Of a DNA stretch of 64,000 nt, positions 11,580 through 14,300 are shown in pieces. The stretch lies in assembly GCA_965204745.1 (NCBI GenBank), contig OZ242010.1, positions 4,352,001 to 4,416,000 of the forward strand, written 5' to 3'. This stretch comes from Candidatus Latescibacterota bacterium. Lineage in GTDB: Bacteria > Latescibacterota > UBA2968. The notes beneath the pieces are model-generated. The model was given only the letters and a program-made list of their open reading frames with translations, ran no database searches and was not told the origin of the DNA. The stretch's first letter is position 1, and each line of letters opens with the position of its first letter. The position numbers and the translations under genes are program-made.

Positions 11580-12011
11580 ATGAGGACACCGAGTGCAAAA
11601 AAAGGTGATGTCGAACAAGTCTGGTATGTCGCCGATGCAGAAGGCAAGGTGCTCGGGCGATTTGCCAGTGGCGTAGCTCGGATTTTGCGCGGCAAACACA
11701 AGCCCTTTTACACGCCCCACATTGACGCGGGGGATCACGTGGTGATCGTCAATGCGGAGAAAATTCGGGTCAAGGGCAATAACAAAGCCCGGCAAAAGGT
11801 TTATACGAGTTACAGCGGGTATCCCGGCGGGCTGAAAAAGCAGACGCTGGAAGACGCGCTCGAAAAGCGACCCGCATTTGTTCTCGAGCACGCGATTCGG
11901 GGCATGTTGCCCCACAACAAATTGGGCCGGCAAATGATGAAAAAGGTCCGGATTTACGCCGGCCCGGAACACCCACACCGCGCTCAGTCTCCCGAGCCAA
12001 TCGATTTGTAG
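11580..12011 (+). CDS. rplM: 50S ribosomal protein L13
   Basis: WYVADAEGKVLGR, LRGKHKPFYTPHIDAGD, YSGYPGG and GMLPHNKLGR motifs. Confidence 0.98.
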   Translation: MRTPSAKKGDVEQVWYVADAEGKVLGRFASGVARILRGKHKPFYTPHIDAGDHVVIVNAEKIRVKGNNKARQKVYTSYSGYPGGLKKQTLEDALEKRPAFVLEHAIRGMLPHNKLGRQMMKKVRIYAGPEHPHRAQSPEPIDL

Positions 12012-12066
12012 AGGAGTTAACGTCTTGTATATTGTTGACTATTGTTGTTTATTTATCGTGTTGTCT

Positions 12067-12654
12067 ATGGCGTATGTAAATACTCGCAAAGCGGTTGCTT
12101 TGCTTGGCGTTCATCCGAGCACATTGCGTAGGTGGGCGACTGACGGTCGGATTGAGCACATTCGTAGTCCGGGTGGTCGGAGGCTTTACAATGTCGATGC
12201 GTTCTTGCGGGAAGAAGTTGGGGTTGTGTGCTATGCACGGGTCAGCAGTTATGCCGAAAAAGACGACTTGCGAGGGCAAGTTGCACTCTTGCGATCCCGT
12301 TATCCCGAAGCAGAGATCGTCAAAGACATTGGGGGAGGTCTCAACGGGAAGCGGAAAGGCCTTGTTGCCCTACTGGAACGCTTACACAGCGGAGAGAAGT
12401 TGCGAATTGTGGTTGCCCACAAAGACCGTCTTGCAAGGTTCGGCTTTGAACTTATTGACTGGCTGGCAAAGCAAAACGGGGGCGCGGTCATGGTTCTCGA
12501 CGAGTCAAGTTGCAGTCCGGAACAAGAACTCACGCAGGATATTCTGTCCATTCTCGATTCGTTCTCTTGTCGGCTGTACGGACTCCGCAAGTATCGTGAC
12601 AAAATCGAAAAAGATAAGACTCTCTCTGACAAGCGAGCAGAAGGCGTTGGTTAA
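12067..12654 (+). CDS. tnpA: IS607 transposase TnpA (MerR-like HTH + serine recombinase)
   Basis: LLGVHPSTLRRW, SPGGRRLY, CYARVSS (catalytic Ser), HKDRLARFGF and SCRLYGLR motifs. Confidence 0.93.
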   Translation: MAYVNTRKAVALLGVHPSTLRRWATDGRIEHIRSPGGRRLYNVDAFLREEVGVVCYARVSSYAEKDDLRGQVALLRSRYPEAEIVKDIGGGLNGKRKGLVALLERLHSGEKLRIVVAHKDRLARFGFELIDWLAKQNGGAVMVLDESSCSPEQELTQDILSILDSFSCRLYGLRKYRDKIEKDKTLSDKRAEGVG

Positions 12655-13738
12655 GGTCTGGTTGGCAGGTAGCCGTTGGTGGTATAACGAGGCCGTGTCG
12701 TTGTATCGTGCGGGATTTTCCGTATCCGAGTATGAGATGCGTGCTCTTGTTCGTGCGGTGAGTCCTGAGTGGTTTGCGGATGTTCCGAGCAAGATATTGT
12801 GCGGTGCGATAGCAGATGCTCACAAAGCGAATCAGGCCGTCTGGCGTAAGCGGAAAGCGTTGAAGAAGAAAGGGATAAAGCGGAAAGTGATGCTCCATTT
12901 TCGCAGTCGTAAATGTCCTGTTCAGTCCTTGTATTTGTGCCATGTGGCGTGGAACAAGGCATTGACGACATTTTATCCGCGTCGTCTTGGCAATGTTCAT
13001 CTCTGCGAATCATTGTCTGTTGTTCCGAAGGATGGTCGTTTGGTCCGTCACAATGGGCGTTACTATGTGACGGTTCCCTATTCAAGTCCACGGCGCGTAA
13101 CCGAGAACCAAGGGCGCGTCGTGGCACTTGATCCAGGTATTCGCAGTTTCTTGACGTTCTATTCCGAGAAGGATTGTGGTAAGATTGGCGAAGGTGATTT
13201 TGGTCGTATTCAGCGTTTGTGCGTTCATCTTGACGGGTTGATCGGTCGCATGACAAAGGCTATCGGATTTCGCAAGGTGCGTTTGAAGCGTGCCTGCCAT
13301 CGCATGCGGTGGCGCATCCGAGATTTGATAGATGAACTACACAAACAGACGGCTCGCTGGTTGGTGGACAACTACGATGTGATTCTGTTGCCCACGTTTG
13401 AAACGCAGGATATGGTACAGCGTGGCAAGCGTTGCCTTCGTCGTAAATCTGTTCGCAGTATGTTGACCTTCGCCCATTACCGCTTCAAGCAGTTTTTGAA
13501 GCACAAAGCATTTGAGACAGGCAAGTTGGTCTTCGATGTGAATGAGGCATACACGTCCAAAACAGTCAGTTGGACAGGCGAGCGTGTGAAGAACTTGGGC
13601 GGTGCTAAGGTCATTCGCAGTCGGATAGATGGTCAAGTAATGGATCGAGATCTAAATGGCGCACGGGGTATTTTTCTCCGTGCTTTGGGCGATACACCCA
13701 AGTTGCGCAACTGCTTGGATGCAACTTGCACTGGTTGA
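12596..13738 (+). CDS. tnpB: RNA-guided endonuclease TnpB (IS607 type)
   Basis: RuvC-I ALDPGIRSF, ILLPTFE, NEAYTSKT, RuvC-III DRDLNGARGI. Start GTG 12596 is a best guess; the frame is open from 12095. Confidence 0.9.
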   Translation: MTKSKKIRLSLTSEQKALVKVWLAGSRWWYNEAVSLYRAGFSVSEYEMRALVRAVSPEWFADVPSKILCGAIADAHKANQAVWRKRKALKKKGIKRKVMLHFRSRKCPVQSLYLCHVAWNKALTTFYPRRLGNVHLCESLSVVPKDGRLVRHNGRYYVTVPYSSPRRVTENQGRVVALDPGIRSFLTFYSEKDCGKIGEGDFGRIQRLCVHLDGLIGRMTKAIGFRKVRLKRACHRMRWRIRDLIDELHKQTARWLVDNYDVILLPTFETQDMVQRGKRCLRRKSVRSMLTFAHYRFKQFLKHKAFETGKLVFDVNEAYTSKTVSWTGERVKNLGGAKVIRSRIDGQVMDRDLNGARGIFLRALGDTPKLRNCLDATCTG

Positions 13739-13802
13739 ACACTTATTGACGAGTCAATAATGGTCAACAGAAAGGTATCAGGTGATATTTTGGCTATTGA
13801 AC
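13670..13802 (+). ncRNA. Putative omegaRNA (right-end scaffold plus a guide from the rpsI 5' flank)
   Basis: Position at the tnpB 3' end/right end; hairpins TTGGGCGATACACCCAA and TTATTGAC-GA-GTCAATAA. Boundaries inferred from known TnpB systems. Confidence 0.55.
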
Positions 13803-14185
13803 CCTTGAGTTCTGCCACCGGGCGGCGCAAGACCTCGACCGCGCATGTGAAACTCTATCCCGGCACGGGCGCGATCACCATCAACGGGCATTCCGCCGCC
13901 GATTATCTCAAGCGAGAGACGTTGGTGATGATCATCGAACAGCCCTTAGACGTGACCGAGACCCGCGGCACCTATGACATTGTCGCCAAAGCAAAAGGGG
14001 GCGGTTTGACCGGTCAGGCCGGCGCCGTGCGATTGGGCATCGCGCGCAGTTTGCAGCGCGTGAACGAGGCCAATCACCAACCCCTTCGCGGCGCGGGATT
14101 GCTCACGCGCGACCCGCGCAAGGTGGAGCGCAAAAAGCCCGGGCAACCCGGCGCACGCAAAAAATTCCAGTTTTCCAAGCGTTGA
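13790..14185 (+). CDS. rpsI: 30S ribosomal protein S9
   Basis: [28 protein letters not shown] and FQFSKR motifs; TTG start after AGGTGA. Confidence 0.97.
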
Positions 14186-14222
14186 GTTTTTCCCAATCCC
14201 CGCGCGGAATGGGGCAATATTC

Positions 14223-14300
14223 CACATGCATCCCGATTGTCGCATGGGTGCTTATCGGCAATGCGGCGAGCCGAGGGGTGCAGAGGCCAAACCCAATGGA
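14223..14300 (+). promoter_or_regulatory. rpsB 5' leader resembling the t44/S2 autoregulatory RNA
   Basis: TGCATCCC...GGGGTGCA stem; GGGTGC and GAGGCCAAACCC segments (GGGU/ACCC pairing) directly before the rpsB RBS. Confidence 0.6.

Follow-up and report, generated by a model that had tools for sequence, protein, structure and literature searches.

How can a mobile element lie in the ribosome-binding site of an essential ribosomal protein gene, with another such gene directly upstream, and be tolerated there? The question is posed by a 64,000-nucleotide (nt) stretch of a Candidatus Latescibacterota genome (assembly GCA_965204745.1, contig OZ242010.1, positions 4,352,001 to 4,416,000 of the forward strand; hereafter the window, in whose coordinates positions are given unless another contig is named), in which a 1.77-kb insert separates rplM from rpsI in the gene order rplM, insert, rpsI, rpsB, tsf. 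The insert is an IS607-family element with a variant core dinucleotide and a target resembling the Shine-Dalgarno (SD) sequence; it is polymorphic and nearly neutral for the SD of rpsI. An earlier reading of this DNA, made from the letters alone (the sequence-only reading), had recognized the family and placed the insertion between rplM and rpsI, within the rpsI SD. Both points are borne out, the former by the family assignments of the recombinase TnpA and of TnpB, the latter by Pfam matches of the flanking genes to ribosomal proteins L13 and S9 and by 20 empty sites.

Empty sites and the exchanged dinucleotide

For comparison with the empty site, the rpsI region was collected from 40 relatives. 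In all 20 genomes of the same genus, rplM and rpsI are adjacent and the intervening sequence reads TAG-AGGAGGTGATT.T-TTG (GTG replaces TTG in the closest relative); the nine additional loci shown, from relatives at a greater distance, likewise have an uninterrupted SD and start, with no insert. Written with the joint as a slash, the empty site is TAGAGGAG/GTGAT, both in the 20 same-genus genomes and in contigs of three public sequencing runs. The left junction tracks this sequence through ...TAGAGGAG (to position 12016, ...GAGGAG) and departs thereafter as TTAACG..., whereas on the right the element sequence extends to ...GGTATC and the empty site is resumed at AG/GTGATATTTTG (13780 onward, AG/GTGAT). 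The two junctions have exactly AG in common and, therefore, the exchanged dinucleotide is AG rather than GG. One copy of AG is found at 12015-12016, where it closes the remnant of the SD left in the upstream flank (AGGAG, 12012..12016), and the other at 13780-13781, where it forms the final bases of the element; with a single AG in each of the 20 empty sites, there is no target-site duplication. Counting one AG core (the right copy), the element occupies 12017..13781 and is 1765 bp long.

The same boundaries emerge from public sequencing runs. Logan contigs of three out of four runs (X2, X8, and X10) join 12014 directly to 13780, skipping 1765 nt with a two-letter ambiguity; the contig with the empty joint has a depth of 90.2 in X2, equal to that of its flanks, and of 4 in X8, whereas in X10 it is 2485 nt long with a shorter side of 215 nt. 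Contigs of run X1 enter the element from either flank. Flanks in the run contigs differ from the window by 0-4 positions per ~215 nt, and the near identity of flanks with and without the insert indicates that the insertion is polymorphic among very close strains. In run X8, contigs with a depth of ~8-11 end at both boundaries (12016 and 13788) beside the depth-4 contig with the empty joint, so that both alleles may coexist in that sample.

Further evidence comes from other copies of the element. The genome carries seven of these, with DNA identity of 78-87%, in addition to three right-end remnants. When the ends are aligned, the left end starts immediately 3' of GG(AG) and the right end closes with ...GAAAGGTATC(AG), the core being given in parentheses. 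The core is AG in this copy and five sister copies and TG in one, whereas relatives in the clade have GG. Five full copies in the genome are AG/AG and the sixth is TG/TG at its two ends, which is the covariation that a 2-bp crossover core predicts. An AG core is a variant inside the IS607 family and no ground for exclusion from it, because the mechanism needs identical cores, not GG itself. Integration is thus a conservative 2-bp exchange at AG within GG(AG)G, without duplication, and the core of this sub-lineage has switched from the family-usual GG to AG, the parent clade recombining at RRGG (R, purine).

These observations dispose of a crossover at GG (12013-14/13781-82), which the sequence-only reading had proposed together with an empty site TAGAGGTGATATTTTG (TAGAGGTGAT...), a guide starting at T13783, and a GG-ending target-adjacent motif (TAM). 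The proposal had in its favor that GG is the canonical IS607 core and is also found in sister elements, both those of the genus and those from metagenomes. The actual empty site, TAGAGGAGGTGAT..., is however 3 nt longer in 20/20 genomes, the contig joint omits 1765 nt (from 12014-16 to 13780-82), and in the TG/TG copy it is the AG position that covaries. The junction strings quoted for the GG model do occur in the sequence where they were said to be, but the junctions themselves were placed 2-3 nt off, given that matches with the empty site run to 12016 and from 13780. By the criterion that the sequence-only reading had set for itself, different boundaries in empty alleles, the boundary model is already refuted and its probability is practically nil; the biological idea behind it, insertion into an SD that is then rebuilt, survives.

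At the right junction, AG from the element and GTGAT from the host make up an SD, AGGTGAT (13780..13786), 3 nt ahead of the TTG of rpsI, that is, at the spacing of the empty site, as had been claimed. The genome has a canonical 16S rRNA tail (GGATCACCTCCTTTCT), and AGGAG or GGAGG precedes ~15% of first-ATG starts compared to a background of 1.3%. To estimate the cost of insertion, the 20 nt upstream of each start were paired with the 16S tail for the occupied and the rebuilt empty site of seven copies. The predicted duplex energy at rpsI is -16.4 kcal/mol when occupied and -19.4 kcal/mol when empty; the corresponding values (occupied and empty, kcal/mol) are -13.9 and -16.8 for copy L004, -13.8 and -16.7 for L007, -11.2 and -13.3 for L005, -9.8 and -11.6 for L003, -8.4 and -8.1 for L002, and -6.4 and -7.2 for L008. 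The predicted cost thus amounts to 0-3 kcal/mol, and pairing is abolished in none of the seven. A search with S9 retrieves a single match in the genome, this rpsI, and since the protein is essential, it would have to be produced from the occupied allele.

Insertion sites at translation starts

Is the rpsI SD an incidental target, or one instance of a habit? In all eight copies with a known left end, GG lies directly 5' of the core (GAGG in five, AAGG, CAGG, and TTGG in one each), and the first flank base 3' of the core is G in most copies of the genome, which gives a preferred site of (R)AGG-AG-G, the core of an SD. The empty site of L008 in relatives reads GAGGAG/TTTTGAC.CATG in five of the seven sequences shown, as the AG model predicts, and in the other two this motif recurs with a displacement of one base. 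Elements of the metagenomic clade have (GG)TTGAC.AACAG as their left end and GTTAGCAAAAAAGTATC(GG) as their right end, and the two bases ahead of the core are purines (RRGG) in 25 of 30 left flanks, 30 being the full number of non-redundant loci that matched the left-end pattern.

For each right junction, we determined how far downstream the first co-directional start codon (ATG, GTG, or TTG) of a reading frame of at least 50 codons lies. For the eleven right ends in this genome, the distances are 8, 9, 8, 6, 8, 8, 8, none, 8, 6, and 8 nt, so that a start codon lies 6-9 nt downstream in 10/11. Among control sites of the same genome, a start is found at 5-10 nt for 17% of all GGAG, 37% of AGGAGG, and 33% of GGAGG outside long open reading frames (ORFs). 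A second subfamily, present in four congeners, with TnpB 52-56% identical, a GG core, and a right end ...AAAAAGGATC(GG), has a start codon at 4-11 nt in 8/10 right ends, and right-end remnants of two congeners adjoin a start codon in 5/6 cases. (Four hits of the genus right-end motif, L045, L054, L056, and L060, have no other similarity to the element; they were taken as chance and left out of the latter count.) For the genus as a whole, a co-directional start follows 23 out of 27 right ends. Beyond the genus, a metagenome scan with the TnpB alignment yielded 80 loci with 43-61% identity, of which 12 were unusable, the right end being uncallable or the flank too short; after four mis-called loci (L252, L255, L257, and L258) were dropped and near-duplicates merged, 59 junctions remained. 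A start lies at 2-12 nt in 22 of these (at 7-10 nt in 18), compared to 16.8% among 2826 control RRGG sites of these contigs (binomial test, P=1.3e-4, to be taken as indicative only, like other P values here, because the samples are related and the ORF criterion is crude). Both target motifs, GGAG and RRGG, resemble an SD, and in the overwhelming majority of cases a co-directional start follows the element at 4-11 nt. The suggestion of the sequence-only reading that SD-like sites are a general landing place of this clade is thereby upheld in the genome, the genus, and the metagenomes alike.

Two explanations of this pattern, which are not mutually exclusive, have to be weighed. In the one we prefer, and consider likely, the habit is enforced by recognition: site choice would be mainly sequence-driven, through TnpA and a co-evolved TnpB TAM of approximately GGAG, with the non-palindromic core setting the orientation. 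In the other, the recombinase would use any (R)GG or GGAG and only co-directional insertions just upstream of starts would persist, as these spare genes, keep the SD, and obtain the host transcription needed for maintenance through TnpB and its omegaRNA. The two-fold enrichment in the wider clade (22/59 versus 16.8%) would fit such survivorship, as would the reported targets of IS607 and of the Clostridium botulinum element CboIStron, which the cited descriptions give as little beyond (G)GG or TGGG (PMC6188088; 10.1101/2023.11.20.567912). A scan of the element for promoters and terminators found nothing exceeding shuffled sequences, no convincing terminator between element and operon, and no sigma-70-like promoter on the + strand, which makes dependence on host transcription plausible. 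Survivorship alone accounts less readily for the GG ahead of the core in 8/8 left flanks, for a start adjoining 10/11 right ends in the genome when this holds for 33% of GGAGG sites outside long ORFs, and for the finding of no copy at an antisense or non-SD intergenic site. Two findings speak for sequence-driven choice rather than survivorship alone. One is copy L006, which lies in an intragenic SD look-alike, GAGGAGG(TG)A (GAGGAGGTGA), 14 codons before the stop of an ORF with a CBS domain. The other is the pair L004 (G000:C1:2875032) and L007 (3120986), which occupy the same SD in paralogous two-gene regions; they belong to different subfamilies and, therefore, represent independent hits on one site. 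Together, these data make survivorship as the sole cause rather unlikely, and recognition by TnpA and TnpB remains the reading that we adopt.

Three details of this pair deserve mention. The ORF downstream of the shared SD is small and repeat-rich, beginning MYFFDFLSNRRE; one of the two is a full copy, the other being without most of tnpA; and dS (synonymous divergence) between their tnpB genes is ~1. TnpB-guided homing was considered as the cause of the shared site and rejected, the elements being of different subfamilies.

TnpB, the predicted guide RNA, and a proposed mechanism

TnpB belongs to family NF040570 (103.2 bits, cut-off 100) and contains the Pfam Cas12f1-like TNB and OrfB domains. 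Its best match among solved structures is the mimivirus protein L79, a Fanzor2 (PDB 9b0l; E=4.1e-21, residues 126-361). The RuvC triad, D179 (in the motif DPG), E317 (in an alternative position), and D352, aligns to L79 and is invariant in 8/8 aligned TnpBs, whereas the residue at the canonical glutamate position varies (E, G, or N) among these relatives. The DPG motif and the rearranged glutamate, located six residues before the first zinc-finger position, are shared with L79 and are described, in the account by Yoon et al. 2023 (PMC10711439) as far as it bears on these residues, as a signature of the Fanzor-related IS607 clade. Unlike L79 and the proteins of that clade, the present protein lacks the zinc finger CxxC...CxxC between RuvC-II and RuvC-III: all four cysteines are replaced (TSKTVSWTGE...DGQ) in 8/8 aligned relatives, with the segment TSKTVSWTGE invariant. 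In contrast to L79, it comes from a bacterial element that also encodes a serine recombinase. Among the metagenomic homologs, 59/80 have the anchoring motif, and the segment contains no cysteine in 49 and one cysteine in 10 of these, a count for which the search pattern itself selected for this TnpB clade.

The last 180 nt of 51 elements were aligned and analyzed with RNAalifold and pair counts. A hairpin within the 3' coding region of tnpB (helix 1, GCACGGGG ... CTCCGTGC, 13661..13683, pairing 13661-13668 with 13676-13683) is followed by a long-range helix 2, in which GATAC (13691..13695) pairs with GTATC (13775..13779), ending immediately before the core. Paired cells amount to 97.1%, versus 82.1% in column shuffles (0/500 as high) and 25-43% when the alignment is slid, and compensatory changes occur in 7/13 pairs (4/8 in helix 1 and 3/5 in helix 2). 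This covariation supports a predicted omegaRNA that overlaps the 3' end of tnpB and ends at the right boundary. In ISXfa1 and CboIStron, the core dinucleotide is reported to close the scaffold, with the guide coming next (PMC10711439; 10.1101/2023.11.20.567912). By analogy, the right AG would be the last bases of the scaffold here (AUCAG, compared to UCGG in CboIStron). Because the scaffold abuts the boundary, the guide is predicted to come from the rpsI flank, as the sequence-only reading had it, although it would start at G13782, one base before the proposed T13783. A guide and TnpB target of ~16-20 nt (13782..13801), delimited by reference to the boundary and to IS607 TnpB systems described in print, would cover what remains of the SD, the spacer, and rpsI from the TTG through its first codons. 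The candidate TAM is the left flank, ...GAGGAG, which with the shifted boundary would end in GGAG and not, as previously expected, in GG. The element's own right end, ...GTATCAG, differs from this TAM at -3/-4, which would prevent self-cutting; the part of the CboIStron report concerned describes a comparable arrangement.

Taken together, the following sequence of events can be proposed, and as a whole we regard it as probable. An element of 1765 bp with tnpA, tnpB, and a 3' omegaRNA has entered the GGAGG SD of rpsI at AG, co-directionally with the operon, at a site that would have been chosen for its likeness to an SD. Its right end, ...GGTATC(AG), meets GTGAT..TTG, so that an SD, AGGTGAT, persists at unchanged spacing. 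Element, omegaRNA, and downstream gene would be transcribed together from the host promoter. Once the element has excised, the rejoined rplM-rpsI sequence would become a target of TnpB carrying the guide GTGATATTTTGGCTAT..., and its cleavage would lead to recopying, as shown for other TnpB elements.

TnpB homing of this kind is familiar from the IS200/IS605 elements ISDra2 and its relatives, in which a right-flank guide and a left-flank TAM recognize the excised donor joint and trigger recopying, the same role as proposed here. Unlike the present element, these have a Y1 transposase, move as single-stranded DNA, and target a T-rich pentanucleotide rather than an SD.

Several observations weigh against the proposed account. 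In the wider clade, only 37% of junctions adjoin a start codon, so that the bias is not absolute, and selection against intragenic insertions must contribute. The ORF-based controls are crude, made with no gene caller and with uncertain start codons, and the copies and relatives are not independent samples, L004 and L007 occupying the same site of paralogous regions. Relatives of L003 read GAAAGG/ACGAATATG, an SD but without AG after GG; the local flank has diverged and the site does not confirm the AG model, being uninformative or mildly contrary. Moreover, tnpA is broken in some sister copies, by TAA in L002 and L003 and by TAG in L005 (tnpB of L002 is broken as well), and the loss of the zinc-finger cysteines, seen in alignments, casts some doubt on the predicted nuclease competence of this TnpB clade.

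A more far-reaching version, which we put forward tentatively as possible rather than probable, is that this IS607 clade uses the SD itself as both attachment site and TAM, read by the recombinase and by a zinc-finger-less, Fanzor-like TnpB (RRGG in general; GG-AG-G here). The asymmetric core would force sense insertion between SD and start, the element end would restore the SD, and the guide would equal the host initiation region, with guide RNA and mRNA leader derived from one transcript and perhaps competing. If so, such elements would represent a second route, besides IStron splicing, to near-harmless TnpB transposons, even in essential operons, and would demonstrate that a functional "safe harbor" can arise by co-evolution of serine transposases with their TnpB partners; the tolerance of an element between two essential ribosomal protein genes would thus be explained. 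They would also provide a natural TnpB with a TAM of approximately GGAG and with guides addressing translation start regions. Should survivorship be the only cause, the case would still show that the places in which TnpB elements last depend on host transcription and SD retention. With its AG and TG cores, the lineage illustrates how core dinucleotides switch in nature, and a zinc-finger-less TnpB clade near Fanzor2 is informative about possible simplification of the TNB domain.

The element can be set against characterized relatives as far as the accounts cited for them extend. Like IS607 of Helicobacter pylori and ISXfa1, it has a small serine recombinase with an N-terminal MerR-like helix-turn-helix (HTH) and an overlapping tnpB downstream, lacks terminal inverted repeats and target duplication, exchanges an identical 2-bp core, and has (here as a prediction) an omegaRNA, or reRNA (right-end RNA), running out of the right end. 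Unlike these GG-core elements, its core is AG (TG in one copy) and its target is embedded in GGAGG. For IS607, the target passage of Chen et al. 2018 (PMC6188088) gives (G)GG with "no additional sequence relationships", whereas the present insertions are concentrated at SD positions in one orientation. In CboIStron, an IS607-type IStron, TGGG is presented as both TnpA target and TnpB TAM, and altered cores are said to reprogram integration only partly (Zedaveinyte et al., 10.1101/2023.11.20.567912). Going by that description, each of the two elements has a way of sparing the host gene, but CboIStron does so by RNA splicing of a group I intron, whereas the present element lands between SD and start and rebuilds the SD. 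Full-text literature searches retrieved no report of SD-directed IS607 insertion, although clades of the GGAG or RRGG type may already be included in the TAM tables that supplement the papers by Zedaveinyte et al. and Yoon et al.

Element anatomy, sister lineages, and remnants

The anatomy of the element (family, boundaries, and parts) is assigned with near certainty. All features lie on the + strand, flanked by rplM (11580..12011, stop codon TAG at 12009-12011; Pfam PF00572, E=1.6e-44) and rpsI (13790..14185, TTG start; PF00380, E=1.2e-46). The intact tnpA (12067..12654) encodes a serine recombinase of 195 aa with an N-terminal MerR-type HTH (Pfam MerR, 8-41; Resolvase, 53-175) and the YARVSS serine motif; the NCBIfam equivalog NF033518 identifies it as an IS607 family transposase (170.3 bits, cut-off 110). 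It overlaps by 59 nt with tnpB (12596..13738; 380 aa), for which homolog alignment places the start at GTG 12596. Terminal inverted repeats are absent and the sole end-related repeat is subterminal, TGTTGACTATTGTTG at 12033..12047 being inverted relative to CAATAATGGTCAACA at 13755..13769 (15 nt, 87% complementary); it is likely the TnpA binding motif. An IStron, that is, an IS607 element combined with a group I intron, was rejected as a reading, given that an Rfam search of 12017-13781 at E up to 1 matched no family and no group I intron, and that the left end of the element is only ~50 nt ahead of tnpA.

The tnpB frame is open far upstream of the start (12095-13738), through most of tnpA in the +1 frame, and measures 472-554 codons from stop to stop in 16/17 copies across the subfamilies. 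Stops in this frame are depleted relative to synonymous shuffles of tnpA (1 versus a mean of 4.27, and 2 versus 6.53); an overlapping extension, a frameshift fusion, or an effect of codon usage could be responsible. Downstream, rpsI shares the frame of tnpB, from which the TGA stop of the latter (13736-38) is the sole separation, and an in-frame ATG at 13760, within the right end, would give S9 ten extra residues (ORF 13760-14185), probably by coincidence.

Among the sister copies, L007 and L008 have lost most of tnpA but kept the left end. The ratio of nonsynonymous to synonymous divergence (dN/dS) of tnpB is 0.12-0.31 over 21 pairs and 0.12-0.20 between lineages (dS 0.58-1.28), and by this measure the elements of the genome appear to be low-copy, long-lived lineages, not a recent burst. 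Right-end remnants of 55-140 nt, without tnpB, lie immediately upstream of start codons, three in this genome (G000:C1:609071-609125, 1110305-1110362, and 2785254-2785321) and five in two relatives (loci L048, L050, L052, and L058 of G018, and L043 of G016); they may be fossils kept as the 5' leader of a gene. In two of them, the similarity continues for another ~140 nt, which suggests a small non-autonomous family.

That such remnants persist upstream of starts raises the question of whether the element has been domesticated, with the right end and omegaRNA, perhaps also TnpB, kept as a 5' untranslated region or a device for translation control. The age of the lineages within the genome (dS 0.6-1.3), combined with purifying selection on tnpB, could be read in this way, as could the coincidence of the predicted guide with the initiation region of the downstream mRNA. 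On the other hand, the RuvC residues are invariant and tnpA is intact in this copy, and near-identical strains differ in whether they have the insertion, which is missing from 20/20 congeners, as expected of a mobile element. We consider domestication very improbable, and a mobile element entering SD-like sites remains the favored interpretation.

Finally, several minor observations concern individual copies and other parts of the genome. In a metagenome contig (L231:600-720), a right end, a single GG, and the left end of the next copy follow one another head-to-tail, as expected of a circle or a tandem dimer. The left flank of L008 (G000:C1, ~754960) lacks 24 nt that are found in G016 between two GG motifs (L286), a difference that may stem from deletion of adjacent DNA by the recombinase or simply from a variable spacer. 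At the right flank of L003 (G000:C1:3136046-3136053), the 7 nt that separate the element from the start codon are unlike those of the two closest relatives (L277 and L278), as is the start codon itself (ATG to GTG), the coding sequence being 95-97% identical; the changes may reflect compensation after insertion. A wide scan of a collection of genome contigs with a 17-nt right-end pattern (one N) found at least 115 stretches, none of them encoding a TnpA or TnpB relative by tblastn among the matches listed, and these were set aside as chance. Three copies of GGTCAACAATGATCAACAAGAAAGG followed by AGCGG (G000:C1:5434616, 3056210, and 3848839) are weak nhmmer matches to the right-end profile and may end another related element. 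Between rpsI and rpsB, a weak Rfam match to the t44 RNA (14205-14292; 27.8 bits, gathering threshold 44) may represent the rpsB leader.

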